This document shows, one piece after another, positions 3,999 through 63,200 of a DNA stretch of 64,000 nt. Location: the NCBI GenBank assembly GCA_032718475.1, contig JAUCBJ010005498.1, positions 1-64,000 of the forward strand, read 5' to 3'. This DNA comes from Nemertoderma westbladi. Taxonomy: Eukaryota > Animalia > Xenacoelomorpha. Each line of letters begins with the position of its first letter. The stretch's first letter is position 1. The translations under genes were made by a program, and so were the position numbers. Below the pieces are notes generated by a model that made no database searches, was not told the DNA's origin, and worked only from the letters and a program-made list of their open reading frames with translations.

Positions 3999-6111
<2,113 letters not shown>

Positions 6112-10183: not shown

Positions 10184-10359
10184 GTAGTATTATAGTTAAA
10201 CCTATGTTAATGTTCCACTGTAATGCTAACAGCACAGATAGCGCAATGGCGTTACGGCTACTCTATTGTAAGTATAATAATAAGTAATTACGCATTAGTT
10301 GTAATAAGTATTACATCGGCACAGGACTTTGTATTGTACTACTACTATGTAGGGCGAGC

Positions 10360-10695: not shown

Positions 10696-10777
10696 TGGTT
10701 CAGGTTGGTTCAGGTGATTTTAGTTCGTTTTTCAATGCCTGTGTACACTAATGTAATCAACTGCTAGGTTTAGTTTT

Positions 10778-13355: not shown

Positions 13356-13617
13356 CCCCTTCAGTATCGCCTTCAACAGTTAGGAATATAATAATAGTTC
13401 CCACGACGAACGTGGTTGTGTACAATGCGAGACATATCCTATCGATTGTTAGTCCGACGTAACGCCAGTCTTCGTTAACCCTTTGGTACTCGTCCTCTGT
13501 TAACAGAAACTGGGTTATGTAGTTGAGGGCTGACATCGCTTGTTTAACGTCATTTCTTTGTCCCACCTTCTCTACTAGTGTCCCCAGTATCGGCTCATCT
13601 TCATCGATGTGTAACAC
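13345..13617 (-). CDS. Exon 8 (MA helix, M4, stop)
   Basis: CAG|GTG acceptor; [16 protein letters not shown]4; ends GAAE-TAA. Confidence 0.92.
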   Translation of the reverse strand: MLHIDEDEPILGTLVEKVGQRNDVKQAMSALNYITQFLLTEDEYQRVNEDWRYVGLTIDRICLALYTTTFVVGTIIIFLTVEGDTEGAAE

Positions 13618-34600: not shown

Positions 34601-37600
34601 TTTATTAAACGATCAGCTGAATCTGTAATTGCTTTCCTGTTTGCCGACGACTTGGTATTCTTCTCGGATTCCAGAGTTGCTCTACAGTCTGCTATAGATG
34701 CAACTTATACCTGGGCGTCATTGAATAGACTGACTGCAAACTTAAAGAAATCCCAAATTATCAAGTTTAGGCGGGGCGGTAGACTTTGCAACGCCGACAA
34801 ATTCTACTACAATGGCAAACCTGTAGAAATTGTCAACAACTACACGTATCTCGGTATTGTGTTACAGCCAACACTTTCTTTCAGTTTGCACGTTATAAAC
34901 ATCCAATGTAAGGCGCTTAAATCAATACATGGTATTAAAAATCCAACTATACTGTCACTCGGCACAGCAATAAAGTTATTCAACATAAAGGTTCATTAAA
35001 CATAAATCCTATAGTATTATACTGTCTCGGAGAAATCTGGCAGTTCTTAAAGGTATCAAATTTCCACGACATTGATAGAATAAAGACAAATTTTCTAAAA
35101 CGTGTACTTTCATTACACAAAACGTCTCAAAATCGATTAGTGCTGGCGATATGAAAGGAAAATTATTTGTGTGCTGATCTACAGGCGGTTTTAAATGCAC
35201 CGAAAACTGAAGAATTTTGTAAATATTTGCAGGCTGTGAAATCAAAGCAAGAGGAAATTCCCGCTAGTTTTTGGAACTCTCAGGCCTTCACAAATCAAAA
35301 GTGGAAGAACTCAAATTTTAAGAATAGACATATAATAACGCGTATGTCCATACACGGCTTCCATCACCATATTTGTAGCACTACTGATTTCCATGATCCT
35401 ACCACTGACTGTATTTGCTCGCTCTGTGGCGCAGTGGCGGACAAGTATAACCTTACAGCGTGTTCTAGAAACCATCACCCTCTATCTTATTGGGCGAACA
35501 AAATCATCACGGCAACGAAAGTAGATATTTTAAATTTATTCCATAGCTCATATAATAAACTCGATTTTACTTCGGTTTGTTTTAAATTAATTAATTTATA
35601 ATTATATAATTGTGCTTTTTATATTTAGTAGTTTGAATATTAATTCAATAGTTTTATATTAAGTTAGATTTCACATTATTGTTTGTAAAATTTAAATGAT
35701 TTAATCAATCTGCGAATAACCATTAATTTATAACTCAATTGAATTTTAGTGCCATATCGCTTAATGAATAGTATCCTTGTTAATTTTATTTGGTGCCTAA
35801 ATAACGCTAGGCTTATTGTTAAATATATAATAAATTATTTATTTACGATATTATAATACAATATTTTGTATAATTTACTTTGCTCTGTATTATAGAACAC
35901 CAACCTGTTATCTATCCAATCTACTCCTATCCATATTGCTGTATTATAGATCACCAACCTGTTATCTACACCAACCTGTTATCTATGCAATCTACTCCTA
36001 TCCATATTGCTGTATTATAGATCACCAACCTGTTATCTATCCAATCTACTCCTATCCATATTGATGTATTATAGATCACCAACCTGTTATCTATCCAATC
36101 TACTCCGATCTATATTGCTGTATTATAGATCACCAACCTGTTATCTATCCAATCTACTCCGATCTATATTGATGTATTATAGATCACCAACCTGTTATCT
36201 ATCCAATCTACTCCGATCTATATTGATGTATTATAGATCACCAACCTGTTATCTATCCAATCTACTCCGATCTATATTGATGTATTATAGATCACCAACC
36301 TGTTATCTATCCAATCTACTCCGATCTATATTGCTGTATTATAGATCACCAACCTGTTATCTACACGAATCTACTCCGATCTATATTGATGTATTATAGA
36401 TCACCAACCTGTTATCTATCCAATCTACTCCGATCTATATTGCTGTATTATAGATCACCAACCTGTTATCTATCCAATCTACTCCTATCTATATTGCTGT
36501 ATTATAGATCACCAACCTGTTATCTATCCAATCTACTCCGATCTATATTGATGTATTATAGATCACCAACCTGTTATCTATCCAATCTACTCCGATCTAT
36601 ATTGATGTATTATAGATCACCAACCTGTTATCTATCCAATCTACTCCGATCTATATTGCTGTATTATAGATCACCAACCTGTTATCTACACGAATCTACT
36701 CCGATCTATATTGATGTATTATAGATCACCAACCTGTTATCTATCCAATCTACTCCGATCTATATTGCTGTATTATAGATCACCAACCTGTTATCTATCC
36801 AATCTACTCCTATCTATATTGCTGTATTATAGATCACCAACCTGTTATCTATCCAATCTACTCCGATCTATATTGCTGTATTATAGATCACCAACCTGTT
36901 ATCTACACGAATCTACTCCGATCTATATTGATGTATTATAGATCACCAACCTGTTATCTATCCAATCTACTCCGATCTATATTGATGTATTATAGATCAC
37001 CAACCTGTTATCTACACGAATCTACTCCGATCATATATTGATGTATTATAGATCACCAACCTGTTATCTATCCAATCTACTCCGATCTATATTGATGTAT
37101 TATAGATCACCAACCTGTTATCTACACGAATCTACTCCGATCTATATTGATGTATTATAGATCACCAACCTGTTATCTATCCAATCTACTCCGATCTATA
37201 TTGATGTATTATAGATCACCAACCTGTTATCTATCCAATCTACTCCGATCTATATTGCTGTATTATAGATCACCAACCTGTTATCTACACGAACCTACTC
37301 CGATCTATATTGATGTATTATAGATCACCAACCTGTTATCTATCCAATCTACTCCGATCTATATTGATGTATTATAGATCACCAACCTGTTATCTACACG
37401 AATCTACTCCGATCTATATTGATGTATTATAGATCACCAACCTGTTATCTATCCAATCTACTCCGATCTATATTGATGTATTATAGATCACCAACCTGTT
37501 ATCTATCCAATCTACTCCGATCTATATTGATGTATTATAGATCACCAACCTGTTATCTACACGAACCTACTCCGATCTATATTGATGTATTATAGATCAC

Positions 37601-40600
37601 CAACCTGTTATCTATCCAATCTACTCCGATCTATATTGCTGTATTATAGATCACCAACCTGTTATCTACACGAACCTACTCCGATCTATATTGATGTATT
37701 ATAGATCACCAACCTGTTATCTATCCAATCTACTCCGATCTATATTGCTGTATTATAGATCACCAACCTGTTATCTATCCAATCTACTCCGATCTATATT
37801 GATGTATTATAGATCACCAACCTGTTATCTATCCAATCTACTCCGATCTATATTGATGTATTATAGATCACCAACCTGTTATCTAACCAATCTACTCCGA
37901 TCTATATTGCTGTATTATAGATCACCAACCTGTTATCTATCCAATCTACTCCGATCTATATTGCTGTATTATAGATCACCAACCTGTTATCTATCCAATC
38001 TACTCCGATCTATATTGATGTATTATAGATCACCAACCTGTTATCTATCCAATCTACTCCGATCTATATTGATGTATTATAGATCACCAACCTGTTATCT
38101 AACCAATCTACTCCGATCTATATTGCTGTATTATAGATCACCAACCTGTTATCTACACGAATCTACTCCGATCTATATTGATGTATTATAGATCACCAAC
38201 CTGTTATCTATCCAATCTACTCCGATCTATATTGCTGTATTATAGATCACCAACCTGTTATCTATCCAATCTACTCCGATCTATATTGATGTATTATAGA
38301 TCACCAACCTGTTATCTATCCAATCTACTCCGATCTATATTGATGTATTATAGATCACCAACCTGTTATCTAACCAATCTACTCCGATCTATATTGCTGT
38401 ATTATAGATCACCAACCTGTTATCTACACGAATCTACTCCGATCTATATTGATGTATTATAGATCACCAACCTGTTATCTATCCAATCTACTCCGATCTA
38501 TATTGATGTATTATAGATCACCAACCTGTTATCTACACGAATCTACTCCGATCTATATTGATGTATTATAGATCACCAACCTGTTATCTATCCAATCTAC
38601 TCCGATCTATATTGATGTATTATAGATCACCAACCTGTTATCTACACGAACCTACTCCGATCTATATTGATGTATTATAGATCACCAACCTGTTATCTAT
38701 CCAATCTACTCCGATCTATATTGCTGTATTATAGATCACCAACCTGTTATCTATCCAATCTACTCCGATCTATATTGATGTATTATAGATCACCAACCTG
38801 TTATCTAACCAATCTACTCCGATCCATATTGCTGTATTATAGATCACCAACCTGTTATCTATCCAATCTACTCCGATCTATATTGATGTATTATAGATCA
38901 CCAACCTGTTATCTACACGAACCTACTCCGATCTATATTGATGTATTATAGATCACCAACCTGTTATCTATCCAATCTACTCCGATCTATATTGATGTAT
39001 TATAGATCACCAACCTGTTATCTAACCAATCTACTCCGATCCATATTGATGTATTATAGATCACCAACCTGTTATCTATCCAATCTACTCCGATCTATAT
39101 TGCTGTATTATAGATCACCAACCTGTTATCTATCCAATCTACTCCGATCTATATTGATGTATTATAGATCACCAACCTGTTATCTATCCAATCTACTCCG
39201 ATCTATATTGCTGTATTATAGATCACCAACCTGTTATCTATCCAATCTACTCCGATCTATATTGATGTATTATAGATCACCAACCTGTTATCTATCCAAT
39301 CTACTCCGATACATATTGATGTATTATAGATCACCAACCTGTTATCTACACGAATCTACTCCGATCTATATTGATGTATTATAGATCACCAACCTGTTAT
39401 CTACACGAATCTACTCCGATCTATATTGCTGTATTATAGATCACCAACCTGTTATCTACACGAATCTACTCCGATCTATATTGCTGTATTATAGATCACC
39501 AACCTGTTATCTATCCAATCTACTCCGCTCATATATTGCTGTATTATAGATCACCAACCTGTTATCTATCCAATCTACTCCGATCTATATTGCTGTATTA
39601 TAGATCACCAACCTGTTATCTACACGAATCTACTCCGATCTATATTGCTGTATTATAGATCACCAACCTGTTATCTACACGAATCTACTCCGATCTATAT
39701 TGCTGTATTATAGATCACCAACCTGTTATCTATCCAATCTACTCCGATCTATATTGCTGTATTATAGATCACCAACCTGTTATCTATCCAATCTACTCCG
39801 ATCTATATTGCTGTATTATAGATCACCAACCTGTTATCTATCCAATCTACTCCGATCTATATTGCTGTATTATAGATCACCAACCTGTTATCTATCCAAT
39901 CTACTCCGATCTATATTGCTGTATTATAGATCACCAACCTGTTATCTATCCAATCTACTCCGATCTATATTGCTGTATTATAGATCACCAACCTGTTATC
40001 TATCCAATCTACTCCGATCTATATTGCTGTATTATAGATCACCAACCTGTTATCTATCCAATCTACTCCGATCTATATTGCTGTATTATAGATCACCAAC
40101 CTGTTATCTATCCAATCTACTCCGATCTATATTGCTGTATTATAGATCACCAACCTGTTATCTATCCAATCTACTCCGATCTATATTGCTGTATTATAGA
40201 TCACCAACCTGTTATCTATCCAATCTACTCCGATCTATATTGCTGTATTATAGATCACCAACCTGTTATCTATCCAATCTACTCCGCTCATATATTGATG
40301 TATTATAGATCACCAACCTGTTATCTATCCAATCTACTCCGATCTATATTGCTGTATTATAGATCACCAACCTGTTATCTATCCAAACTACTCCGCTCAT
40401 ATATTGATGTATTATAGATCACCAACCTGTTATCTATCCAATCTACTCCGATCTATATTGCTGTATTATAGATCACCAACCTGTTATCTATCCAATCTAC
40501 TCCGATCTATATTGCTGTATTATAGATCACCAACCTGTTATCTATCCAAACTACTCCGCTCATATATTGATGTATTATAGATCACCAACCTGTTATCTAT

Positions 40601-43600
40601 CCAATCTACTCCGATCTATATTGCTGTATTATAGATCACCAACCTGTTATCTATCCAATCTACTCCGATCTATATTGATGTATTATAGATCACCAACCTG
40701 TTATCTATCCAATCTACTCCGATCTATATTGATGTATTATAGATCACCAACCTGTTATCTATCCAAACTACTCCGCTCATATATTGATGTATTATAGATC
40801 ACCAACCTGTTATCTATCCAATCTACTCCGATCTATATTGATGTATTATAGATCACCAACCTGTTATCTATCCAATCTACTCCGATCTATATTGATGTAT
40901 TATAGATCACCAACCTGTTATCTATCCAATCTACTCCGATACATATTGATGTATTATAGATCACCAACCTGTTATCTACACGAATCTACTCCGATCTATA
41001 TTGATGTATTATAGATCACCAACCTGTTATCTACACGAATCTACTCCGATCTATATTGCTGTATTATAGATCACCAACCTGTTATCTACACGAATCTACT
41101 CCGATCTATATTGCTGTATTATAGATCACCAACCTGTTATCTATCCAATCTACTCCGCTCATATATTGCTGTATTATAGATCACCAACCTGTTATCTATC
41201 CAATCTACTCCGATCTATATTGCTGTATTATAGATCACCAACCTGTTATCTACACGAATCTACTCCGATCTATATTGCTGTATTATAGATCACCAACCTG
41301 TTATCTACACGAATCTACTCCGATCTATATTGCTGTATTATAGATCACCAACCTGTTATCTATCCAATCTACTCCGATCTATATTGCTGTATTATAGATC
41401 ACCAACCTGTTATCTATCCAATCTACTCCGATCTATATTGCTGTATTATAGATCACCAACCTGTTATCTATCCAATCTACTCCGATCTATATTGCTGTAT
41501 TATAGATCACCAACCTGTTATCTATCCAATCTACTCCGATCTATATTGCTGTATTATAGATCACCAACCTGTTATCTATCCAATCTACTCCGATCTATAT
41601 TGCTGTATTATAGATCACCAACCTGTTATCTATCCAATCTACTCCGATCTATATTGCTGTATTATAGATCACCAACCTGTTATCTATCCAATCTACTCCG
41701 ATCTATATTGCTGTATTATAGATCACCAACCTGTTATCTATCCAATCTACTCCGATCTATATTGCTGTATTATAGATCACCAACCTGTTATCTATCCAAT
41801 CTACTCCGATCTATATTGCTGTATTATAGATCACCAACCTGTTATCTATCCAATCTACTCCGATCTATATTGCTGTATTATAGATCACCAACCTGTTATC
41901 TATCCAATCTACTCCGCTCATATATTGATGTATTATAGATCACCAACCTGTTATCTATCCAATCTACTCCGATCTATATTGCTGTATTATAGATCACCAA
42001 CCTGTTATCTATCCAAACTACTCCGCTCATATATTGATGTATTATAGATCACCAACCTGTTATCTATCCAATCTACTCCGATCTATATTGCTGTATTATA
42101 GATCACCAACCTGTTATCTATCCAATCTACTCCGATCTATATTGCTGTATTATAGATCACCAACCTGTTATCTATCCAATCTACTCCGATCTATATTGCT
42201 GTATTATAGATCACCAACCTGTTATCTATCCAATCTACTCCGATCTATATTGCTGTATTATAGATCACCAACCTGTTATCTATCCAATCTACTCCGATCT
42301 ATATTGCTGTATTATAGATCACCAACCTGTTATCTATCCAAACTACTCCGCTCATATATTGATGTATTATAGATCACCAACCTGTTATCTATCCAATCTA
42401 CTCCGCTCTATATTGATGTATTATAGATCACCAACCTGTTATCTATCCAATCTACTCCGATCTATATTGATGTATTATAGATCACCAACCTGTTATCTAT
42501 CCAATCTACTCCGCTCATATATTGATGTATTATAGATCACCAACCTGTTATCTATCCAATCTACTCCGCTCATATATTGATGTATTATAGATCACCAACC
42601 TGTTATCTATCCAATCTACTCCGATCTATATTGCTGTATTATAGATCACCAACCTGTTATCTATCCAATCTACTCCGATCTATATTGCTGTATTATAGAT
42701 CACCAACCTGTTATCTATCCAATCTACTCCGATCTATATTGCTGTATTATAGATCACCAACCTGTTATCTATCCAATCTACTCCGATCTATATTGATGTA
42801 TTATAGATCACCAACCTGTTATCTATCCAAACTACTCCGCTCATATATTGATGTATTATAGATCACCAACCTGTTATCTATCCAATCTACTCCGCTCATA
42901 TATTGCTGTATTATAGATCACCAACCTGTTATCTATCCAATCTACTCCGCTCATATATTGATGTATTATAGATCACCAACCTGTTATCTATCCAATCTAC
43001 TCCGCTCATATATTGCTGTATTATAGATCACCAACCTGTTATCTATCCAATCTACTCCGATCTATATTGATGTATTATAGATCACCAACCTGTTATCTAT
43101 CCAATCTACTCCGCTCATATATTGATGTATTATAGATCACCAACCTGTTATCTATCCAATCTACTCCGATCTATATTGATGTATTATAGATCACCAACCT
43201 GTTATCTATCCAATCTACTCCGATCTATATTGATGTATTATAGATCACCAACCTGTTATCTATCCAAACTACTCCGCTCATATATTGATGTATTATAGAT
43301 CACCAACCTGTTATCTATCCAATCTACTCCGATCTATATTGATGTATTATAGATCACCAACCTGTTATCTATCCAATCTACTCCGATCTATATTGATGTA
43401 TTATAGATCACCAACCTGTTATCTATCCAATCTACTCCGCTCATATATTGATGTATTATAGATCACCAACCTGTTATCTATCCAATCTACTCCGATCTAT
43501 ATTGCTGTATTATAGATCACCAACCTGTTATCTATCCAATCTACTCCGCTCATATATTGATGTATTATAGATCACCAACCTGTTATCTATCCAATCTACT

Positions 43601-46600
43601 CCGCTCATATATTGATGTATTATAGATCACCAACCTGTTATCTATCCAATCTACTCCGCTCATATATTGATGTATTATAGATCACCAACCTGTTATCTAT
43701 CCAATCTACTCCGATCTATATTGCTGTATTATAGATCACCAACCTGTTATCTATCCAATCTACTCCGCTCATATATTGATGTATTATAGATCACCAACCT
43801 GTTATCTATCCAATCTACTCCGATCTATATTGATGTATTATAGATCACCAACCTGTTATCTATCCAATCTACTCCGATCTATATTGATGTATTATAGATC
43901 ACCAACCTGTTATCTATCCAAACTACTCCGCTCATATATTGATGTATTATAGATCACCAACCTGTTATCTATCCAATCTACTCCGATCTATATTGATGTA
44001 TTATAGATCACCAACCTGTTATCTATCCAAACTACTCCGCTCATATATTGATGTATTATAGATCACCAACCTGTTATCTATCCAATCTACTCCGATCTAT
44101 ATTGATGTATTATAGATCACCAACCTGTTATCTATCCAATCTACTCCGATCTATATTGATGTATTATAGATCACCAACCTGTTATCTATCCAATCTACTC
44201 CGCTCTATATTGATGTATTATAGATCACCAACCTGTTATCTATCCAATCTACTCCGATCTATATTGATGTATTATAGATCACCAACCTGTTATCTATCCA
44301 ATCTACTCCGCTCATATATTGATGTATTATAGATCACCAACCTGTTATCTATCCAATCTACTCCGATCTATATTGATGTATTATAGATCACCAACCTGTT
44401 ATCTATCCAATCTACTCCGATCTATATTGATGTATTATAGATCACCAACCTGTTATCTATCCAATCTACTCCGCTCATATATTGATGTATTATAGATCAC
44501 CAACCTGTTATCTATCCAATCTACTCCGATCTATATTGATGTATTATAGATCACCAACCTGTTATCTATCCAATCTACTCCGCTCATATATTGATGTATT
44601 ATAGATCACCAACCTGTTATCTATCCAATCTACTCCGCTCATATATTGATGTATTATAGATCACCAACCTGTTATCTATCCAATCTACTCCGCTCATATA
44701 TTGATGTATTATAGATCACCAACCTGTTATCTATCCAATCTACTCCGATCTATATTGATGTATTATAGATCACCAACCTGTTATCTATCCAATCTACTCC
44801 GATCTATATTGATGTATTATAGATCACCAACCTGTTATCTATCCAATCTACTCCGCTCATATATTGATGTATTATAGATCACCAACCTGTTATCTATCCA
44901 ATCTACTCCGCTCTATATTGATGTATTATAGATCACCAACCTGTTATCTATCCAATCTACTCCGATCTATATTGATGTATTATAGATCACCAACCTGTTA
45001 TCTATCCAATCTACTCCGCTCATATATTGATGTATTATAGATCACCAACCTGTTATCTATCCAATCTACTCCGATCTATATTGATGTATTATAGATCACC
45101 AACCTGTTATCTATCCAATCTACTCCGCTCATATATTGATGTATTATAGATCACCAACCTGTTATCTATCCAATCTACTCCGCTCATATATTGATGTATT
45201 ATAGATCACCAACCTGTTATCTATCCAATCTACTCCGCTCATATATTGATGTATTATAGATCACCAACCTGTTATCTATCCAATCTACTCCGATCTATAT
45301 TGATGTATTATAGATCACCAACCTGTTATCTATCCAATCTACTCCGCTCATATATTGATGTATTATAGATCACCAACCTGTTATCTATCCAAACTACTCC
45401 GCTCATATATTGATGTATTATAGATCACCAACCTGTTATCTATCCAATCTACTCCGCTCTATATTGATGTATTATAGATCACCAACCTGTTATCTATCCA
45501 ATCTACTCCGATCTATATTGATGTATTATAGATCACCAACCTGTTATCTATCCAATCTACTCCGCTCATATATTGATGTATTATAGATCACCAACCTGTT
45601 ATCTATCCAATCTACTCCGCTCATATATTGATGTATTATAGATCACCAACCTGTTATCTATCCAATCTACTCCGCTCATATATTGATGTATTATAGATCA
45701 CCAACCTGTTATCTATCCAATCTACTCCGATCTATATTGATGTATTATAGATCACCAACCTGTTATCTATCCAATCTACTCCGCTCATATATTGATGTAT
45801 TATAGATCACCAACCTGTTATCTATCCAATCTACTCCGATCTATATTGATGTATTATAGATCACCAACCTGTTATCTATCCAATCTACTCCGATCTATAT
45901 TGATGTATTATAGATCACCAACCTGTTATCTATCCAAACTACTCCGCTCATATATTGATGTATTATAGATCACCAACCTGTTATCTATCCAAACTACTCC
46001 GCTCATATATTGATGTATTATAGATCACCAACCTGTTATCTATCCAATCTACTCCGATCTATATTGATGTATTATAGATCACCAACCTGTTATCTATCCA
46101 ATCTACTCCGATCTATATTGATGTATTATAGATCACCAACCTGTTATCTATCCAATCTACTCCGATCTATATTGATGTATTATAGATCACCAACCTGTTA
46201 TCTATCCAATCTACTCCGATCTATATTGCTGTATTATAGATCACCAACCTGTTATCTATCCAATCTACTCCGATCTATATTGATGTATTATAGATCACCA
46301 ACCTGTTATCTATCCAATCTACTCCGCTCATATATTGATGTATTATAGATCACCAACCTGTTATCTATCCAATCTACTCCGATCTATATTGATGTATTAT
46401 AGATCACCAACCTGTTATCTATCCAATCTACTCCGCTCATATATTGATGTATTATAGATCACCAACCTGTTATCTATCCAATCTACTCCGCTCATATATT
46501 GATGTATTATAGATCACCAACCTGTTATCTATCCAATCTACTCCGCTCATATATTGATGTATTATAGATCACCAACCTGTTATCTATCCAATCTACTCCG

Positions 46601-49600
46601 ATCTATATTGATGTATTATAGATCACCAACCTGTTATCTATCCAATCTACTCCGATCTATATTGATGTATTATAGATCACCAACCTGTTATCTATCCAAA
46701 CTACTCCGCTCATATATTGATGTATTATAGATCACCAACCTGTTATCTATCCAATCTACTCCGATCTATATTGATGTATTATAGATCACCAACCTGTTAT
46801 CTATCCAATCTACTCCGCTCATATATTGATGTATTATAGATCACCAACCTGTTATCTATCCAATCTACTCCGCTCATATATTGATGTATTATAGATCACC
46901 AACCTGTTATCTATCCAATCTACTCCGCTCATATATTGATGTATTATAGATCACCAACCTGTTATCTATCCAATCTACTCCGCTCATATATTGATGTATT
47001 ATAGATCACCAACCTGTTATCTATCCAAACTACTCCGCTCATATATTGATGTATTATAGATCACCAACCTGTTATCTATCCAAACTACTCCGCTCATATA
47101 TTGATGTATTATAGATCACCAACCTGTTATCTATCCAATCTACTCCGCTCTATATTGCTGTATTATAGATCACCAACCTGTTATCTATCCAATCTACTCC
47201 GATCTATATTGCTGTATTATAGATCACCAACCTGTTATCTATCCAAACTACTCCGCTCATATATTGATGTATTATAGATCACCAACCTGTTATCTATCCA
47301 ATCTACTCCGCTCATATATTGATGTATTATAGATCACCAACCTGTTATCTATCCGAATCTACTCCGCTCATATATTGATGTATTATAGATCACCAACCTG
47401 TTATCTATCCAAACTACTCCGCTCATATATTGATGTATTATAGATCACCAACCTGTTATCTATCCAAACTACTCCGCTCATATATTGCTGTATTATAGAT
47501 CACCAACCTGTTATCTATCCAAACTACTCCGCTCATATATTGATGTATTATAGATCACCAACCTGTTATCTATCCAATCTACTCCGCTCATATATTGATG
47601 TATTATAGATCACCAACCTGTTATCTATCCAATCTACTCCGATCTATATTGCTGTATTATAGATCACCAACCTGTTATCTATCCAATCTACTCCGCTCAT
47701 ATATTGATGTATTATAGATCACCAACCTGTTATCTATCCAATCTACTCCGCTCATATATTGATGTATTATAGATCACCAACCTGTTATCTATCCAATCTA
47801 CTCCGCTCATATATTGATGTATTATAGATCACCAACCTGTTATCTATCCAAACTACTCCGCTCATATATTGATGTATTATAGATCACCAACCTGTTATCT
47901 ATCCAAACTACTCCGCTCATATATTGATGTATTATAGATCACCAACCTGTTATCTATCCAATCTACTCCGCTCATATATTGATGTATTATAGATCACCAA
48001 CCTGTTATCTATCCAATCTACTCCGATCTATATTGCTGTATTATAGATCACCAACCTGTTATCTATCCAATCTACTCCGCTCATATATTGATGTATTATA
48101 GATCACCAACCTGTTATCTATCCAATCTACTCCGATCTATATTGCTGTATTATAGATCACCAACCTGTTATCTATCCAATCTACTCCGCTCATATATTGA
48201 TGTATTATAGATCACCAACCTGTTATCTATCCAATCTACTCCGCTCATATATTGATGTATTATAGATCACCAACCTGTTATCTATCCAATCTACTCCGCT
48301 CATATATTGATGTATTATAGATCACCAACCTGTTATCTATCCAATCTACTCCGCTCATATATTGATGTATTATAGATCACCAACCTGTTATCTATCCAAT
48401 CTACTCCGATCTATATTGCTGTATTATAGATCACCAACCTGTTATCTATCCAATCTACTCCGCTCATATATTGATGTATTATAGATCACCAACCTGTTAT
48501 CTATCCAATCTACTCCGCTCATATATTGATGTATTATAGATCACCAACCTGTTATCTATCCAATCTACTCCGCTCATATATTGATGTATTATAGATCACC
48601 AACCTGTTATCTATCCAATCTACTCCGCTCATATATTGATGTATTATAGATCACCAACCTGTTATCTATCCAATCTACTCCGATCTATATTGCTGTATTA
48701 TAGATCACCAACCTGTTATCTATCCAATCTACTCCGCTCATATATTGATGTATTATAGATCACCAACCTGTTATCTATCCAATCTACTCCGCTCATATAT
48801 TGATGTATTATAGATCACCAACCTGTTATCTATCCAATCTACTCCGATCTATATTGCTGTATTATAGATCACCAACCTGTTATCTATCCAATCTACTCCG
48901 CTCATATATTGATGTATTATAGATCACCAACCTGTTATCTATCCAATCTACTCCGCTCATATATTGATGTATTATAGATCACCAACCTGTTATCTATCCA
49001 ATCTACTCCGCTCATATATTGATGTATTATAGATCACCAACCTGTTATCTATCCAATCTACTCCGCTCATATATTGATGTATTATAGATCACCAACCTGT
49101 TATCTATCCAATCTACTCCGCTCATATATTGATGTATTATAGATCACCAACCTGTTATCTATCCAATCTACTCCGATCTATATTGCTGTATTATAGATCA
49201 CCAACCTGTTATCTATCCAATCTACTCCGCTCATATATTGATGTATTATAGATCACCAACCTGTTATCTATCCAATCTACTCCGCTCATATATTGATGTA
49301 TTATAGATCACCAACCTGTTATCTATCCAATCTACTCCGCTCATATATTGATGTATTATAGATCACCAACCTGTTATCTATCCAATCTACTCCGCTCATA
49401 TATTGATGTATTATAGATCACCAACCTGTTATCTATCCAATCTACTCCGCTCATATATTGATGTATTATAGATCACCAACCTGTTATCTATCCAATCTAC
49501 TCCGCTCATATATTGATGTATTATAGATCACCAACCTGTTATCTATCCAATCTACTCCGCTCATATATTGATGTATTATAGATCACCAACCTGTTATCTA

Positions 49601-52600
49601 TCCAATCTACTCCGCTCATATATTGATGTATTATAGATCACCAACCTGTTATCTATCCAATCTACTCCGCTCATATATTGATGTATTATAGATCACCAAC
49701 CTGTTATCTATCCAATCTACTCCGATCTATATTGATGTATTATAGATCACCAACCTGTTATCTATCCAATCTACTCCGCTCATATATTGATGTATTATAG
49801 ATCACCAACCTGTTATCTATCCAATCTACTCCGCTCATATATTGATGTATTATAGATCACCAACCTGTTATCTATCCAATCTACTCCGCTCATATATTGA
49901 TGTATTATAGATCACCAACCTGTTATCTATCCAATCTACTCCGCTCATATATTGATGTATTATAGATCACCAACCTGTTATCTATCCAATCTACTCCGCT
50001 CATATATTGATGTATTATAGATCACCAACCTGTTATCTATCCAATCTACTCCGCTCATATATTGATGTATTATAGATCACCAACCTGTTATCTATCCAAT
50101 CTACTCCGATCTATATTGCTGTATTATAGATCACCAACCTGTTATCTATCCAATCTACTCCGCTCATATATTGATGTATTATAGATCACCAACCTGTTAT
50201 CTATCCAATCTACTCCGCTCATATATTGATGTATTATAGATCACCAACCTGTTATCTATCCAATCTACTCCGCTCATATATTGATGTATTATAGATCACC
50301 AACCTGTTATCTATCCAATCTACTCCGCTCATATATTGATGTATTATAGATCACCAACCTGTTATCTATCCAAACTACTCCGCTCATATATTGATGTATT
50401 ATAGATCACCAACCTGTTATCTATCCAATCTACTCCGCTCATATATTGATGTATTATAGATCACCAACCTGTTATCTATCCAAACTACTCCGCTCATATA
50501 TTGATGTATTATAGATCACCAACCTGTTATCTATCCAATCTACTCCGCTCATATATTGATGTATTATAGATCACCAACCTGTTATCTATCCAAACTACTC
50601 CGCTCATATATTGATGTATTATAGATCACCAACCTGTTATCTATCCAATCTACTCCGCTCATATATTGATGTATTATAGATCACCAACCTGTTATCTATC
50701 CAATCTACTCCGCTCATATATTGATGTATTATAGATCACCAACCTGTTATCTATCCAATCTACTCCGCTCATATATTGATGTATTATAGATCACCAACCT
50801 GTTATCTATCCAATCTACTCCGCTCATATATTGATGTATTATAGATCACCAACCTGTTATCTATCCAATCTACTCCGCTCATATATTGATGTATTATAGA
50901 TCACCAACCTGTTATCTATCCAATCTACTCCGCTCATATATTGATGTATTATAGATCACCAACCTGTTATCTATCCAAACTACTCCGCTCATATATTGAT
51001 GTATTATAGATCACCAACCTGTTATCTATCCAATCTACTCCGCTCATATATTGATGTATTATAGATCACCAACCTGTTATCTATCCAATCTACTCCGCTC
51101 ATATATTGATGTATTATAGATCACCAACCTGTTATCTATCCAATCTACTCCGCTCATATATTGATGTATTATAGATCACCAACCTGTTATCTATCCAATC
51201 TACTCCGCTCATATATTGATGTATTATAGATCACCAACCTGTTATCTATCACGAATCTACTCCGCTCATATATTGATGTATTATAGATCACCAACCTGTT
51301 ATCTATCCAATCTACTCCGCTCATATATTGATGTATTATAGATCACCAACCTGTTATCTATCCAATCTACTCCGCTCATATATTGATGTATTATAGATCA
51401 CCAACCTGTTATCTACACGAATCTACTCCGATCTATATTGCTGTATTATAGATCACCAACCTGTTATCTATCCAATCTACTCCGCTCATATATTGATGTA
51501 TTATAGATCACCAACCTGTTATCTATCCAAACTACTCCGCTCATATATTGATGTATTATAGATCACCAACCTGTTATCTATCCAATCTACTCCGCTCATA
51601 TATTGATGTATTATAGATCACCAACCTGTTATCTATCCAATCTACTCCGCTCATATATTGATGTATTATAGATCACCAACCTGTTATCTATCCAATCTAC
51701 TCCGCTCATATATTGATGTATTATAGATCACCAACCTGTTATCTATCCAATCTACTCCGCTCATATATTGATGTATTATAGATCACCAACCTGTTATCTA
51801 CACGAATCTACTCCGATCTATATTGCTGTATTATAGATCACCAACCTGTTATCTATCCAATCTACTCCGCTCATATATTGATGTATTATAGATCACCAAC
51901 CTGTTATCTATCCAAACTACTCCGCTCATATATTGATGTATTATAGATCACCAACCTGTTATCTATCCAATCTACTCCGCTCATATATTGATGTATTATA
52001 GATCACCAACCTGTTATCTACCGAATCTACTCCGCTCATATATTGATGTATTATAGATCACCAACCTGTTATCTATCCAATCTACTCCGCTCATATATTG
52101 ATGTATTATAGATCACCAACCTGTTATCTATCCAATCTACTCCGCTCATATATTGATGTATTATAGATCACCAACCTGTTATCTACACGAATCTACTCCG
52201 CTCATATATTGATGTATTATAGATCACCAACCTGTTATCTATCCAATCTACTCCGCTCATATATTGATGTATTATAGATCACCAACCTGTTATCTATCCA
52301 ATCTACTCCGCTCATATATTGATGTATTATAGATCACCAACCTGTTATCTACACGAATCTACTCCGATCTATATTGCTGTATTATAGATCACCAACCTGT
52401 TATCTATCCAATCTACTCCGCTCATATATTGATGTATTATAGATCACCAACCTGTTATCTATCCAAACTACTCCGCTCATATATTGATGTATTATAGATC
52501 ACCAACCTGTTATCTATCCAATCTACTCCGCTCATATATTGATGTATTATAGATCACCAACCTGTTATCTATCCAATCTACTCCGCTCATATATTGATGT

Positions 52601-55600
52601 ATTATAGATCACCAACCTGTTATCTATCCAATCTACTCCGCTCATATATTGATGTATTATAGATCACCAACCTGTTATCTATCCAATCTACTCCGCTCAT
52701 ATATTGATGTATTATAGATCACCAACCTGTTATCTACACGAATCTACTCCGATCTATATTGCTGTATTATAGATCACCAACCTGTTATCTATCCAATCTA
52801 CTCCGCTCATATATTGATGTATTATAGATCACCAACCTGTTATCTATCCAAACTACTCCGCTCATATATTGATGTATTATAGATCACCAACCTGTTATCT
52901 ATCCAATCTACTCCGCTCATATATTGATGTATTATAGATCACCAACCTGTTATCTATCCGAATCTACTCCGCTCATATATTGATGTATTATAGATCACCA
53001 ACCTGTTATCTATCCAATCTACTCCGCTCATATATTGATGTATTATAGATCACCAACCTGTTATCTATCCAATCTACTCCGCTCATATATTGATGTATTA
53101 TAGATCACCAACCTGTTATCTACACGAATCTACTCCGATCTATATTGCTGTATTATAGATCACCAACCTGTTATCTATCCAATCTACTCCGCTCATATAT
53201 TGATGTATTATAGATCACCAACCTGTTATCTATCCAAACTACTCCGCTCATATATTGATGTATTATAGATCACCAACCTGTTATCTACACGAATCTACTC
53301 CGATCTATATTGCTGTATTATAGATCACCAACCTGTTATCTATCCAATCTACTCCGCTCATATATTGATGTATTATAGATCACCAACCTGTTATCTATCC
53401 AAACTACTCCGCTCATATATTGATGTATTATAGATCACCAACCTGTTATCTATCCAATCTACTCCGCTCATATATTGATGTATTATAGATCACCAACCTG
53501 TTATCTATCCAATCTACTCCGCTCATATATTGATGTATTATAGATCACCAACCTGTTATCTATCCAATCTACTCCGCTCATATATTGATGTATTATAGAT
53601 CACCAACCTGTTATCTATCCAATCTACTCCGCTCATATATTGCTGTATTATAGATCACCAACCTGTTATCTATCCAATCTACTCCGCTCATATATTGATG
53701 TATTATAGATCACCAACCTGTTATCTATCCAATCTACTCCGATCTATATTGATGTATTATAGATCACCAACCTGTTATCTATCCAATCTACTCCGCTCAT
53801 ATATTGATGTATTATAGATCACCAACCTGTTATCTATCCAATCTACTCCGATCTATATTGATGTATTATAGATCACCAACCTGTTATCTATCCAATCTAC
53901 TCCGCTCATATATTGATGTATTATAGATCACCAACCTGTTATCTATCCAATCTACTCCGCTCATATATTGATGTATTATAGATCACCAACCTGTTATCTA
54001 CACGAATCTACTCCGCTCATATATTGATGTATTATAGATCACCAACCTGTTATCTATCCAATCTACTCCGCTCATATATTGATGTATTATAGATCACCAA
54101 CCTGTTATCTATCCAATCTACTCCGCTCATATATTGATGTATTATAGATCACCAACCTGTTATCTATCCAATCTACTCCGCTCATATATTGATGTATTAT
54201 AGATCACCAACCTGTTATCTATCCAATCTACTCCGCTCATATATTGATGTATTATAGATCACCAACCTGTTATCTATCCAATCTACTCCGCTCATATATT
54301 GATGTATTATAGATCACCAACCTGTTATCTATCCAATCTACTCCGCTCATATATTGATGTATTATAGATCACCAACCTGTTATCTATCCAATCTACTCCG
54401 CTCATATATTGATGTATTATAGATCACCAACCTGTTATCTATCCAATCTACTCCGCTCATATATTGATGTATTATAGATCACCAACCTGTTATCTATCCA
54501 ATCTACTCCGCTCATATATTGATGTATTATAGATCACCAACCTGTTATCTACACGAATCTACTCCGCTCATATATTGATGTATTATAGATCACCAACCTG
54601 TTATCTACACGAATCTACTCCGCTCATATATTGATGTATTATAGATCACCAACCTGTTATCTATCCAATCTACTCCGCTCATATATTGATGTATTATAGA
54701 TCACCAACCTGTTATCTATCCAATCTACTCCGATCTATATTGATGTATTATAGATCACCAACCTGTTATCTATCCAAACTACTCCGCTCATATATTGATG
54801 TATTATAGATCACCAACCTGTTATCTATCCAATCTACTCCGATCTATATTGATGTATTATAGATCACCAACCTGTTATCTATCCAAACTACTCCGATCTA
54901 TATTGATGTATTATAGATCACCAACCTGTTATCTATCCAATCTACTCCGCTCATATATTGATGTATTATAGATCACCAACCTGTTATCTACACGAATCTA
55001 CTCCGCTCATATATTGATGTATTATAGATCACCAACCTGTTATCTACACGAATCTACTCCGCTCATATATTGATGTATTATAGATCACCAACCTGTTATC
55101 TATCCAATCTACTCCGCTCATATATTGATGTATTATAGATCACCAACCTGTTATCTATCCAATCTACTCCGCTCATATATTGATGTATTATAGATCACCA
55201 ACCTGTTATCTATCCAATCTACTCCGCTCATATATTGATGTATTATAGATCACCAACCTGTTATCTATCCAATCTACTCCGCTCATATATTGATGTATTA
55301 TAGATCACCAACCTGTTATCTATCCAAACTACTCCGCTCATATATTGATGTATTATAGATCACCAACCTGTTATCTATCCAATCTACTCCGATCTATATT
55401 GATGTATTATAGATCACCAACCTGTTATCTATCCAATCTACTCCGCTCATATATTGATGTATTATAGATCACCAACCTGTTATCTATCCAATCTACTCCG
55501 ATCTATATTGATGTATTATAGATCACCAACCTGTTATCTATCCAATCTACTCCGATCTATATTGATGTATTATAGATCACCAACCTGTTATCTATCCAAA

Positions 55601-58600
55601 CTACTCCGATCTATATTGATGTATTATAGATCACCAACCTGTTATCTATCCAATCTACTCCGCTCATATATTGATGTATTATAGATCACCAACCTGTTAT
55701 CTATCCAATCTACTCCGATCTATATTGATGTATTATAGATCACCAACCTGTTATCTATCCAATCTACTCCGATCTATATTGATGTATTATAGATCACCAA
55801 CCTGTTATCTATCCAAACTACTCCGATCTATATTGATGTATTATAGATCACCAACCTGTTATCTATCCAATCTACTCCGCTCATATATTGATGTATTATA
55901 GATCACCAACCTGTTATCTACACGAATCTACTCCGCTCATATATTGATGTATTATAGATCACCAACCTGTTATCTACACGAATCTACTCCGCTCATATAT
56001 TGATGTATTATAGATCACCAACCTGTTATCTATCCAATCTACTCCGCTCATATATTGATGTATTATAGATCACCAACCTGTTATCTATCCAATCTACTCC
56101 GATCTATATTGATGTATTATAGATCACCAACCTGTTATCTATCCAAACTACTCCGCTCATATATTGATGTATTATAGATCACCAACCTGTTATCTATCCA
56201 ATCTACTCCGATCTATATTGATGTATTATAGATCACCAACCTGTTATCTATCCAAACTACTCCGATCTATATTGATGTATTATAGATCACCAACCTGTTA
56301 TCTATCCAATCTACTCCGCTCATATATTGATGTATTATAGATCACCAACCTGTTATCTACACGAATCTACTCCGCTCATATATTGATGTATTATAGATCA
56401 CCAACCTGTTATCTACACGAATCTACTCCGCTCATATATTGATGTATTATAGATCACCAACCTGTTATCTATCCAATCTACTCCGCTCATATATTGATGT
56501 ATTATAGATCACCAACCTGTTATCTATCCAATCTACTCCGCTCATATATTGATGTATTATAGATCACCAACCTGTTATCTATCCAATCTACTCCGCTCAT
56601 ATATTGATGTATTATAGATCACCAACCTGTTATCTATCCAATCTACTCCGCTCATATATTGATGTATTATAGATCACCAACCTGTTATCTATCCAAACTA
56701 CTCCGCTCATATATTGATGTATTATAGATCACCAACCTGTTATCTATCCAATCTACTCCGCTCATATATTGATGTATTATAGATCACCAACCTGTTATCT
56801 ATCCAATCTACTCCGCTCATATATTGATGTATTATAGATCACCAACCTGTTATCTATCCAATCTACTCCGCTCATATATTGATGTATTATAGATCACCAA
56901 CCTGTTATCTACACGAATCTACTCCGCTCATATATTGATGTATTATAGATCACCAACCTGTTATCTACACGAATCTACTCCGCTCATATATTGATGTATT
57001 ATAGATCACCAACCTGTTATCTATCCAATCTACTCCGCTCATATATTGATGTATTATAGATCACCAACCTGTTATCTATCCAATCTACTCCGATCTATAT
57101 TGATGTATTATAGATCACCAACCTGTTATCTATCCAAACTACTCCGCTCATATATTGATGTATTATAGATCACCAACCTGTTATCTATCCAATCTACTCC
57201 GATCTATATTGATGTATTATAGATCACCAACCTGTTATCTATCCAAACTACTCCGATCTATATTGATGTATTATAGATCACCAACCTGTTATCTATCCAA
57301 TCTACTCCGCTCATATATTGATGTATTATAGATCACCAACCTGTTATCTACACGAATCTACTCCGCTCATATATTGATGTATTATAGATCACCAACCTGT
57401 TATCTACACGAATCTACTCCGCTCATATATTGATGTATTATAGATCACCAACCTGTTATCTATCCAATCTACTCCGCTCATATATTGATGTATTATAGAT
57501 CACCAACCTGTTATCTATCCAATCTACTCCGATCTATATTGATGTATTATAGATCACCAACCTGTTATCTATCCAAACTACTCCGCTCATATATTGATGT
57601 ATTATAGATCACCAACCTGTTATCTATCCAATCTACTCCGATCTATATTGATGTATTATAGATCACCAACCTGTTATCTATCCAAACTACTCCGCTCATA
57701 TATTGATGTATTATAGATCACCAACCTGTTATCTATCCAATCTACTCCGCTCATATATTGCTGTATTATAGATCACCAACCTGTTATCTATCCAATCTAC
57801 TCCGCTCATATATTGATGTATTATAGATCACCAACCTGTTATCTACACGAATCTACTCCGCTCATATATTGATGTATTATAGATCACCAACCTGTTATCT
57901 ATCCAATCTACTCCGCTCATATATTGATGTATTATAGATCACCAACCTGTTATCTATCCAATCTACTCCGCTCATATATTGATGTATTATAGATCACCAA
58001 CCTGTTATCTATCCAATCTACTCCGCTCATATATTGATGTATTATAGATCACCAACCTGTTATCTATCCAATCTACTCCGCTCATATATTGATGTATTAT
58101 AGATCACCAACCTGTTATCTATCCAATCTACTCCGCTCATATATTGATGTATTATAGATCACCAACCTGTTATCTATCCAATCTACTCCGCTCATATATT
58201 GATGTATTATAGATCACCAACCTGTTATCTATCCAATCTACTCCGCTCATATATTGATGTATTATAGATCACCAACCTGTTATCTACACGAATCTACTCC
58301 GCTCATATATTGATGTATTATAGATCACCAACCTGTTATCTATCCAATCTACTCCGCTCATATATTGATGTATTATAGATCACCAACCTGTTATCTATCC
58401 AATCTACTCCGCTCATATATTGATGTATTATAGATCACCAACCTGTTATCTATCCAATCTACTCCGATCTATATTGCTGTATTATAGATCACCAACCTGT
58501 TATCTATCCAATCTACTCCGATCTATATTGATGTATTATAGATCACCAACCTGTTATCTACACGAATCTACTCCGATCTATATTGATGTATTATAGATCA

Positions 58601-61217
58601 CCAACCTGTTATCTATCCAATCTACTCCGATCTATATTGATGTATTATAGATCACCAACCTGTTATCTATCCAATCTACTCCTATCCATATTGCTGTATT
58701 ATAGATCACCAACCTGTTATCTATCCAATCTACTCCTATCCATATTGCTGTATTATAGATCACCAACCTGTTATCTATCCAATCTACTCCGATCTATATT
58801 GATGTATTATAGATCACCAACCTGTTATCTACACGAATCTACTCCGATCTATATTGATGTATTATAGATCACCAACCTGTTATCTATCCAATCTACTCCG
58901 ATCTATATTGATGTATTATAGATCACCAACCTGTTATCTACACGAATCTAATCCGATCTATATTGATGTATTATAGATCACCAACCTGTTATCTATCCAA
59001 TCTACTCCGATCTATATTGATGTATTATAGATCACCAACCTGTTATCTATCCAATCTACTCCGATCTATATTGATGTATTATAGATCACCAACCTGTTAT
59101 CTATCCAATCTACTCCGATCTATATTGATGTATTATAGATCACCAACCTGTTATCTATCCAATCTACTCCGATCTATATTGCTGTATTATAGATCACCAA
59201 CCTGTTATCTATCCAATCTACTCCGATCTATATTGCTGTATTATAGATCACCAACCTGTTATCTATCCAATCTACTCCGATCTATATTGATGTATTATAG
59301 ATCACCAACCTGTTATCTATCCAATCTACTCCGATCTATATTGATGTATTATAGATCACCAACCTGTTATCTATCCAATCTACTCCGATCTATATTGATG
59401 TATTATAGATCACCAACCTGTTATCTATCCAATCTACTCCGATCTATATTGATGTATTATAGATCACCAACCTGTTATCTATCCAATCTACTCCGATCTA
59501 TATTGATGTATTATAGATCACCAACCTGTTATCTATCCAATCTACTCCGATCTATATTGCTGTATTATAGATCACCAACCTGTTATCTATCCAATCTACT
59601 CCGATCTATATTGCTGTATTATAGATCACCAACCTGTTATCTATCCAATCTACTCCGATCCATATTGCTGTATTATAGATCACCAACCTGTTATCTATCC
59701 AATCTACTCCGATACATATTGCTGTATTATAGATCACCAACCTGTTATCTATCCAATCTACTCCGATCTATATTGATGTATTATAGATCACCAACCTGTT
59801 ATCTATCCAATCTACTCCGATACATATTGCTGTATTATAGATCACCAACCTGTTATCTATCCAATCTACTCCGATCCATATTGCTGTTTTTATCTCCTCA
59901 TCTTGTTCTGCAACGTCTACTATTTGGGTCAGAGTCAAAATGAAGTTAATAACAATCAATTCACCTAAACATATTAAATAATATAAAGTTAATAACAATC
60001 AATTCACCTAAACATATTAAATAATATAAAGTTAATAACAATCAATTCACCTAAACATATTAAATAATATATAAAGTTAATAACAATAAATTCTCCTAAA
60101 CATATTAAATATTAAATAATATATAAAGTTAATAACAATCAATTCACCTAAACATATTAAATAATATATAAAGTTAATAACAATCAATTCACCTAAACAT
60201 ATTAAATATTAAATAATATATAAAGTTAATAACAATCAATTCACCTAAACATATTAAATAATATATAAAGTTAATAACAATCAATTCTCCTAAACATATT
60301 AAATAATATATAAAGTTAATAACAATCAATTCTCCTAAACATATTAAATATTAAATAATATATAAAGTTAATAACAATTAATTCTCCTAAACATATTAAA
60401 TAATATATAAAGTTAATAACAATCAATTCTCCTAAACATATTAAATAATATATAAAGTTAATAACAATCAATTCTCCTAAACATATTAAATAATATAAGG
60501 TTAATAACAATCAATTCACCTAAACATATTAAATATTAAATAATATATAAAGTTAATAACAATCAATTCTCCTAAACATATTAAATAATATATAAAGTTA
60601 ATAACAATCAATTCTCCTAAACATATTAAATATTAAATAATATATAAAGTTAATAACAATCAATTCACCTAAACATATTAAATATTAAATAATATATAAA
60701 GTTAATAACAATCAATTCTCCTAAATATATTAAATAATAATTATTTATATAAAGTTAATAACAATCAATTCTCCTAAACATATTAAATAATATATAAAGT
60801 TAATAACAATCAATTCACCTAAACATATTAAATATTAAATAATATATAAAGTTAATAACAATCAATTCCTCTAAACATATTAAATAATAATTATTCATAG
60901 AAAGTTAATAACAATCAATTCACCTCCTAAACATATTAAACTTTATAATAATTACTATTTATTATCCGAAACAATATAATCCCAATAAAAATTAAGATTT
61001 GTGGAAAAATGGAAAGAGGGACCTGACTTTTTCAGATCTTGTCTACTGGATTGCAGTACCACAGACTTATTTATTACTGACCTTGGCTATTTACAGGCCT
61101 CGAAGACGAATCGTAATCAGCGAACAGTTTGGAAACGAGTTTCTGAGATGGAGTTTCGAATCGTGTTGTAAAAACCACAGAAATTAAACTCAATAGAAAA
61201 ACTAGGTTGAAATTCAT
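13345..61217 (-). CDS. Cys-loop ligand-gated ion channel subunit, nicotinic acetylcholine receptor-like (non-alpha); 8 exons: 61217-61082, 59964-59850, 33940-33785, 24016-23867, 18687-18504, 17790-17594, 17276-17057, 13617-13345; 476 aa
   Basis: Hand-spliced model with GT-AG introns and matching phases (1,2,2,2,0,2,0); total 1431 nt with no internal stop. Motifs in order: signal peptide, LFADY..RPV, QIVDV.E, W.D.RL.W, LWQPN, Cys-loop [33 protein letters not shown]1, [10 protein letters not shown]2, VPL-M3, [22 protein letters not shown]4. Confidence 0.93.
13815..16080 (-). repeat. 39-bp tandem array (~58 units) containing the exon-7 donor CTTATAAG|GTATTGGTAAACAAT
   Basis: 23-25 bp identity with 17043-17066. 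Confidence 0.95.
16406..16925 (+). pseudogene. RPS16: Processed pseudogene of 40S ribosomal protein S16 (uS9)
   Basis: Intronless [17 protein letters not shown]...RYKLL*P...[10 protein letters not shown]...[13 protein letters not shown]. Several in-frame stops; an AGTT duplication before the terminal TAT CGA TAA; AATAAA at ~16906 and ~16918. Confidence 0.93.
17057..17276 (-). CDS. Exon 7 (M3, MX helix, start of intracellular loop)
   Basis: [25 protein letters not shown]; TCAG|T acceptor and AAG|GTATTG donor. Confidence 0.88.
17594..17790 (-). CDS. Exon 6 (M1, M2, start of M3)
   Basis: INLLLP...[22 protein letters not shown]...VPLL; tttCAG| acceptor and TG|GTAAGT donor. Confidence 0.93.
17932..18503 (-). 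repeat. 51-bp tandem array (~11 units) starting at the exon-5 donor
   Basis: Unit TATTGTTACGAGATGTTACCAATACTGATTATCACCTATMKCGATAACCGA; the donor GTAATTGTCACC aligns with CTGATTATCACC in the unit. Confidence 0.92.
18504..18687 (-). CDS. Exon 5 (loops F and C, pre-M1)
   Basis: tttAG|A acceptor and GAG|GTAATT donor; YVTSSEWDI...[15 protein letters not shown]. Confidence 0.9.
18692..23810 (-). repeat. 37-bp tandem array (~140 units, with 24-bp deletion variants) filling intron 4
   Basis: Plus-strand unit AGACAGACAAAATGTAGTACATATGGACAGACATTAT; abuts the exon-5 acceptor. Confidence 0.95.
23867..24016 (-). CDS. Exon 4 with Cys-loop: [49 protein letters not shown]
   Basis: C-x13-C signature; TACAG|G acceptor; AT|GTTAGT donor gives the phase needed by exon 5. 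Confidence 0.92.
25490..26190 (+). mobile_element. RTE-like LINE 3' fragment nested in the CRE-like element
   Basis: [11 protein letters not shown]...LLYG...RLRFAGHC; its 5' part closely matches the reverse complement of 63395-63780. Confidence 0.85.
27988..32141. repeat. GC-rich tandem array of 69-bp and 55-bp units (often 124-bp higher-order pairs), ~65 units
   Basis: Unit GTAGCGAGTGGGGGACAGTTTACACAGGGACGCCCTGCGAGGGCGCATCCACAGA[GGATGGTTCATCCT]. Confidence 0.95.
32170..33479. mobile_element. Non-autonomous foldback DNA transposon, Merlin-like
   Basis: 8-bp TSD GCCACAAT (32162-32169 and 33480-33487); termini GGTTAT/GGTAAT. Inverted arms of 15-17-bp AAAAATATCGAG repeats (32178-32711 and 33036-33471) surround an AT-rich core. 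Confidence 0.8.
33785..33940 (-). CDS. Exon 3: (R)[51 protein letters not shown](R)
   Basis: Not in ORF track. ttcCAG|G acceptor and CCAG|GTAAAC donor; contains the loop-A LWxP motif. Confidence 0.9.
33990..35600 (+). mobile_element. 5'-truncated non-LTR retrotransposon (RT + C-terminal Cys/His knuckle; RTE-X/L2-like, clade uncertain)
   Basis: [46 protein letters not shown]; frameshifted C-terminus HHHIC..CICSLC. Confidence 0.88.
35884..59886 (-). repeat. 54/55-bp tandem array, ~24 kb, ~440 units, each made of the last ~12 codons of exon 2 + donor AG|GTTGGT + ~17 nt of intron
   Basis: Sense unit CAATATAGATCGGAGTAGATTGGATAGATAACAG|GTTGGTGATCTATAATACAG versus exon GCAATATGGATCGGAGTAGATTGGATAGATAACAG|GTTGGT. 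Confidence 0.97.
59850..59964 (-). CDS. Exon 2: (G)[37 protein letters not shown](R)
   Basis: tttAG|GTGA acceptor and CAG|GTTGGT donor; beta1-beta2 pattern QIVDV.E and loop-D Trp. Confidence 0.9.
59943..60940 (-). repeat. 43/45/52-bp tandem array (~21 units) made of the exon-2 acceptor + first ~7 codons
   Basis: Sense unit TATATATTATTTAATATGTTTAG|GWGAATTGATTGTTATTAACTT. Confidence 0.95.
61082..61217 (-). CDS. Exon 1 (signal peptide + N-terminal helix): [45 protein letters not shown](G)
   Basis: Not in ORF track. Hydrophobic leader, nAChR-type 'KL...LF..Y....RPV', donor CAAG|GTCAGT, phase 1 matches exon 2. Confidence 0.88.
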
Positions 61218-63008: not shown

Positions 63009-63200
63009 GTAGACATTCCTCCCCCTTGCGTCGCTGTCGTCTAAAGGTCTAGGTAGCCATTCGTCAAATGTTTGGCAGGGGTTTCAGATTAGTTTTTTTA
63101 GATTAGATTTAGGTATCTAATCTGAAACCCCTGCCAAACATTTGACGAATGGCTGCCTAGACCTTTAGACGACAGCGACGCAAGGGGGAGGAATGTCTAC
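63009..63200. repeat. Near-perfect palindrome, 84-bp arms, 24-bp spacer
   Basis: 63009-63092 is the reverse complement of 63117-63200 with one mismatch. Confidence 0.92.

Follow-up and report, generated by a model that had tools for sequence, protein, structure and literature searches.

A minisatellite laid across exon 2's 5' splice site has repeated that site 440 times over 24 kb in a 64,000-nt stretch of Nemertoderma westbladi DNA (hereafter the window, at its full length). We conclude that the array probably started in an intact gene as one duplication, expanded by ordinary turnover and is tolerated because the first donor would be the one chosen. Repeats of this type have been described before in human and lancelet genes; the present array is a very large example.

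The host is the complete coding region of an nAChR-like Cys-loop receptor gene, on the minus strand, with 8 exons and 476 codons. Its reading frame stays open for 1431 nt over the 8 exons, all introns are GT-AG, and a Cys-loop LBD is followed by a four-helix membrane region in this single open frame. Pfam Neur_chan_LBD and Neur_chan_memb gave collinear matches over exons 2-8 and none for exon 1, with three of the four LBD exons scoring under the Pfam curated cut-off when taken singly; the best PDB matches are nAChR subunits. The exons are as follows.

61082..61217, minus strand: exon 1 (ATG to donor), hydrophobic N-terminus; from frame and splice signals, no Pfam hit
59850..59964, minus strand: exon 2, 115 nt, AG/GT bounded, authentic donor GT at 59849-59848; Neur_chan_LBD 26-59
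33785..33940, minus strand: exon 3, 156 nt, its skipping would keep the frame; Neur_chan_LBD 66-100
23867..24016, minus strand: exon 4 (Cys-loop), acceptor duplicated once about 40 nt upstream; from splice signals and Pfam
18504..18687, minus strand: exon 5 (loop C region); from splice signals and Pfam
17594..17790, minus strand: exon 6 (TM1-TM2), acceptor duplicated once in a 61-bp unit; from Pfam, PDB match and TRF
17057..17276, minus strand: exon 7 (TM3 and loop); from splice signals and Pfam
13345..13617, minus strand: exon 8 (TM4, stop codon); from Pfam

The exon 2 Trp, in a region that we take to be loop D, aligns with the Trp of nAChR epsilon 'SVWIGIDWQD'. The nAChR alpha subunit is defined by a pair of vicinal cysteines in loop C; they are absent from the exon 5 translation (no CC), so an alpha identity was rejected and the subunit is non-alpha-like. 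TM2 (17596-17790) keeps the GEK motif, but one position that is phenylalanine in the Torpedo beta chain is proline here, a residue that may affect gating or mark a divergent subunit. Searches for homologues among longer proteins with exon 6 and exon 8 as queries, which were weak searches, returned none; a metagenome pattern scan for the junction gave 0 matches, and exon 7, scanned against metagenomes, matched 2 distant loci with 34-36% identity. A sequencing-run search with 13340-18700 listed no RNA run, a result that says nothing about expression.

The array itself was delimited by word count and TRF.

35897..59887, minus strand: 54/55-bp donor minisatellite, 440 donor copies

A sequence-only reading had described some 440 identical 5' splice sites behind a 115-bp exon, derived from the exon-2/intron-2 junction, and both points are borne out. 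The word GATAACAG followed across the boundary by GTTGGT occurs exactly 440 times on the minus strand, the first G of its GT running from 59849 (first copy) to 35904 (last copy), so that the splice signal recurs in 440/440 copies of the exon-2 donor. TRF placed the array at 35897/35969-59887, with about 438 copies and 97% matches. The 439 inter-donor units measure 54 nt (183), 55 nt (235), 56 nt (19), 57 nt (1) and 17 nt (1, reflecting one 37-nt deletion) and fall into 29 distinct sequence types; since no unit is longer than 57 nt, the exact anchor missed no donor copy. Each unit is made of the first 19 nt of intron 2 and the last 35 nt of exon 2, and a 4-nt microhomology (ACAG) is common to both unit breakpoints. 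The first copy lies across the authentic exon-intron boundary, as in a boundary-spanning minisatellite with a unit of 10-160 bp, and the last copy differs at +8. Very few single-copy variants are seen across the 24 kb. Intron 2 is 25,909 bases long; the array fills 23,953 of them, with a copy number and unit order that are those of one haplotype.

We then translated the products predicted for each donor, in which two elements matter.

59796..59849, minus strand: unit 1, open; splicing at donor 2 (GT at 59795) would lengthen the protein in frame by 18 aa, to 494 aa
59768..59770, minus strand: TAG in unit 2, first stop for donors 3-440

Translation confirmed the earlier proposals that the first copy is open, with donor 2 yielding an in-frame 18-aa addition, and that distal donors would be non-productive. 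Unit 1 codes Cys in place of Trp, and an open frame is predicted from donors 1 and 2 only among the 440; donors 3-440 are all predicted to reach a premature stop upstream of later junctions, as expected for unproductive splicing. The Trp codon does read TAG in most 54-bp units (171/183, the others being 8 TGG and 4 TGT). For all 438 distal donors, nevertheless, the first stop is the same single TAG, at codon 111 in unit 2; one stop serves them all, and the other 202 of the 203 TAGs are therefore redundant. The 55-bp variants noted earlier are indeed present, but 55 nt is the commonest length (235/439) and not a minor variant, and a +T insertion removes the TAG in 223/439 units. Redundancy and loss on this scale give no support to the idea that the TAG is kept for a purpose. 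A hairpin-templated mutation that rose in frequency by drift is its probable origin: TGG>TAG makes perfect an 8-bp inverted repeat formed with the unit's intron half, ranks among the 4 best-templated of 162 possible substitutions, and takes the predicted DNA fold of the first 40 nt to -4.3 kcal/mol (vs -2.3 without TAG). The same change is also a plain transition, and the templating excess over the 10 observed substitutions is marginal (P=0.046).

Conservation within the unit bears on whether the donors are under selection. All variable sites lie within -35..-11, and the 29 nt from -10 to +19 are invariant save in the unit with the 37-nt deletion and at +8 of the last copy. The claim that the donor is invariant while the exon-derived part varies thus holds as regards the donor (exact in 440/440), but the invariant stretch extends beyond it over the whole of -10..+19. 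Per-position variant counts, suggested as a way to ask whether the donor is more conserved than its flanks, gave a negative answer: 20 flanking non-donor positions are spared equally, and the donor core is no more invariant than they are, which gives no support to a donor kept for a purpose. The probability that a 9-nt donor core stays free of events is 0.04-0.16 for 18-10 events. The clustering of variable sites depends strongly on how they are counted, with P=0.00015 when 12 sites are taken as independent, P of about 0.001-0.01 for 10-14 events, and P=0.35 when they are treated as 4 loci (two hot spots and two lone sites). In the same analysis of the other arrays in the window, confined to units near the commonest length (57/57, 11/20, 93/99, 10/10, 104/138 and 31/66), 5/6 were unclustered and 1/6 was clustered (P=0.022). 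Six rare variants, present in 1-7 copies each, likewise fall outside the donor half; with so few of 440 donors concerned, selection should have next to no effect, which would indicate a mutation or conversion bias. Templating accounts weakly for the one-sided clustering (P=0.046, 10 substitutions). The clustering counts against the tolerance reading. The exon-7 donor array of the same gene provides an internal control: 6/58 copies carry changes within -1 to +6, and in two the GT itself is hit. We dropped the idea that the invariant core is Grainyhead-like or GATA-like, as the one paper checked had the word in a primer.

The pattern along the array is ordinary repeat turnover. Units with TGG or TGT stand at positions 1, 3, 4, 21, 22, 346, 376, 381, 385, 436, 437 and 439 of 439, showing that ancestral-type units lie mostly at both array ends, where homogenisation is weaker, and derived units in the middle. 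A block of 24 units is duplicated, compared with at most 9 in 30 shuffles.

The gene as a whole is rich in such repeats. After merging of the TRF intervals, tandem repeats make up 68.6% of the window and 38,335 of the gene's 47,873 bases, leaving 129, 63, 41 and 284 non-tandem bases in introns 1, 4, 5 and 6, respectively. Of 16 coding boundaries, 6 are duplicated, the stop codon included; copies at no more than 1 mismatch number 18 for the exon-2 acceptor, 440 for the exon-2 donor, 2 for the exon-4 acceptor, 2 for the exon-6 acceptor, 58 for the exon-7 donor and 96 for the stop codon. Under a rough geometric null (with no formal test), 15-52% of the 26-54-nt duplications that are tolerated would lie across a boundary if the original introns were 150-300 nt long. 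Boundary straddling could thus follow from geometry alone and no targeting is needed; we make no claim that arrays are enriched at exon boundaries, since short original introns can account for them. The other features referred to below are these.

59943..60952, minus strand: 43-53-bp array with copies of the exon-2 acceptor; 21 acceptor-like sites when the real one is counted; from TRF
13815..16080, minus strand: 39-bp array derived from the donor junction of exon 7, with 57 additional copies
10772..13355, minus strand: 26-bp array, about 100 copies, first unit across the stop codon; from TRF
34106..34999, plus strand: LINE-like reverse-transcriptase fragment, in intron 2 but outside the array; PF00078 matches at no more than 46% identity, distant

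Exon 2 has about 20 decoy acceptors upstream, so that among some 21 x 440 site pairs the authentic pair gives the shortest exon; the 7 nearest upstream acceptor copies all give stops. The 39-bp array lies about 1 kb away from the real exon-7 donor, and the unrelated sequence in between is probably a later insertion. On the sense strand each 26-bp unit reads TGAATAAA, a stop overlapping AATAAA, which places about 100 possible polyadenylation signals right after the stop codon. Exon 5 is flanked by arrays at 18694-23809, ending 7 nt before its acceptor, and at 17938-18500, starting just after its donor; neither holds splice-site copies, and introns 4 and 5 are nearly all repeat. The 55/69-bp array of intron 3 (27990-32139) is GC-rich, shows a higher-order pattern and has a palindrome inside it, and at 32177-33471 two 15-17-bp arrays form inverted repeats facing each other across a 300-bp AT-rich core, resembling a foldback or MITE-type element. 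Downstream of the gene, 4028-6011 is a near-pure ACAGGT hexamer (about 330 copies) with AG/GT-like words on both strands, and a 22-bp array at 1976-2549 flips orientation at 2196. A long inverted repeat lies near 63.1 kb (63017-63200), and further decayed reverse-transcriptase (LINE-like) fragments are found at 8840-10709, 25629-26144 and 61900-63000.

We propose that the array likely began with a single tandem duplication spanning the exon-2 donor and that ordinary repeat turnover likely accounts for its growth. Donor 1 would be selected by exon definition or 5'-to-3' scanning, and a little splicing would leak to donor 2 (+18 aa) and to donor 3, whose product would carry a premature stop and is a predicted NMD target; NMD would then act as passive clean-up and not as a dial. 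Predicted RNA structure brings donor 1 no gain in accessibility (0.035 vs 0.006-0.038 for the next 15 donors), so any preference for it would come from its position. On this analysis, the spare donor signals are likely ignored rather than serving as a control switch. Two further points count against tolerance: the splicing precedents come from mammals and lancelets and not from the host's group, and the human ABCA7 array is not harmless, according to the part of its report available to us (PMC5954066).

These precedents are instructive in detail. The available part of the ABCA7 report (PMC5954066) describes an intron-18 VNTR of up to about 427 units, each starting with a donor GT. Retention of one unit, the sole retention reported in that part, occurs at about 2% and is NMD-sensitive (the PTC isoform is raised by cycloheximide) but not length-dependent; in-frame skipping of the next exon and lower expression, in contrast, followed VNTR length (PMC5954066). 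The likeness to the present array lies in the donor GT of each unit, the similar copy number and a next exon that can be skipped in frame. The differences are that the ABCA7 unit, as given there, is 25 bp, purely intronic and frameshifting, with arrays of at most 10.7 kb (PMC5954066), whereas ours is 54/55 bp, includes 35 nt of exon, extends over 24 kb and has a first extra unit that is in frame. In human F7, the excerpt consulted (PMC1557585) reports that only the most upstream of 5-9 identical donors of the IVS7 37-bp VNTR is used, and in the 6-16/IFI6, CBS, LMNB2 and PDGF cases, as described in the same excerpt, at most two extra sites are used. F7 resembles our gene in having its first unit across the exon-intron boundary, followed by identical pseudo-donors; the unit numbers (5-9 in F7 and up to 26 in the other cases covered by that excerpt, PMC1557585) compare with 440 here, and the roughly 20 upstream decoy acceptors are a feature of the present exon 2, unlike F7. 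The lancelet 'mirage' minisatellites of Adh3, the globins BflGb6 and BflGb9, TnC and PGBD5, in the portions of PMC3087553 and PMC3902484 that we draw on, lie on either side of exons, several per gene, and leave a normal mRNA. They share with the present array tandem exon-intron boundary repeats and end units excluded from homogenisation, but the clusters in those portions hold 2-7 units (PMC3087553, PMC3902484), so that ours is about two orders of magnitude longer. Our literature search found no description of the present locus, although an earlier report may exist.

How do other explanations fare against tolerance of a passive array? The sequence-only reading had favoured an NMD-coupled dosage dial, in which copy number would set the share of transcripts sent to distal donors and destroyed, with both donor and stop under selection. 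An open frame from just 2 of 440 donors would suit it, as would 440/440 intact donors with a predicted U1 pairing of -8.8 kcal/mol (second-strongest of the gene's 7 donors) and variants that avoid the donor half of the unit. These variants include the six rare ones, however, which would be hardly visible to selection; a donor core without events is not exceptional (P=0.04-0.16, with 20 flanking positions equally invariant), 202 of 203 TAGs have no work to do, donors of the exon-7 array have mutated, and the NMD-sensitive ABCA7 isoform was not length-dependent in the available part of that report (PMC5954066). The dial is therefore unsupported and we regard it as improbable. The other functions suggested for the array, recursive splicing (stepwise intron removal at AG/GT sites) or a U1 snRNP sink, would draw on the AG/GT in each unit and on a sense strand that has neither AATAAA nor ATTAAA throughout the array, but we consider them very improbable. 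As acceptors, the array sites have a pyrimidine fraction of 0.29-0.41 and another AG 7 nt upstream in 439/439 cases, whereas the gene's 7 real acceptors have fractions of 0.41-0.76 and no AG within 16 nt; strong acceptors are thus missing from the array and recursive splicing is disfavoured. The U1 pool of mammalian cells numbers about 10^5-10^6 copies, and a few nascent transcripts with 440 sites each would be small beside the cell's pool; on these mammalian figures the sink fails.

More mundanely, the gene could be silent or decaying, or the copy number an assembly error, leaving the array without consequence for splicing. The divergent protein, with a TM2 proline that the Torpedo beta chain lacks, would fit the former, and the scarcity of single-copy variants in 24 kb could reflect consensus polishing. 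A 1431-nt frame open over 8 exons, GT-AG introns and collinear Pfam matches argue against decay, however, and ordered variant domains and block duplications resemble real turnover, so that we hold this too to be improbable. An array of the same origin whose length has a side effect, longer alleles raising exon 3 skipping or lowering expression, is unlikely on our analysis but deserves more weight. Skipping the 156-nt exon 3 would keep the frame and yield a 424-aa product that is 52 aa short in the binding domain and would escape NMD; the array takes 23,953/25,909 bases of intron 2; and in ABCA7, as far as the available part of the report extends, exon-19 skipping and expression varied with VNTR length, unlike the donor-shift isoforms (PMC5954066). 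Against this, the ABCA7 authors, in that same part, implicate motifs in the GC-rich unit of their VNTR (PMC5954066). If the array has a real effect, exon 3 skipping would be a better candidate for it than a ladder of distal donors.

At 24 kb, the present array is the longest donor-repeat array among the cases compared (10.7 kb for ABCA7, in the part of PMC5954066 available), and it makes an extreme test case as the same exon is also flanked by decoy acceptors. It also carries a warning for annotation: gene models must span introns that are almost wholly repeat. If RNA shows that the shortest exon is chosen from the roughly 21 x 440 pairs, the gene would be a clean example, supplied by nature, of exon definition based on proximity. 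Should exon-3 skipping follow allele length, the effect seen in ABCA7 would be general. A more speculative reading, which we judge rather unlikely, and slightly more so than a mere side effect of length, is that the 29-nt invariant half is held by a bound factor or by biased conversion and that array length acts as a heritable, fast-mutating tuner of the receptor through exon-3 skipping or output. Were it true, the 24-kb array would be the invertebrate equivalent of the ABCA7 VNTR, in a gene that selects one 115-nt exon among some 21 acceptors and 440 donors.
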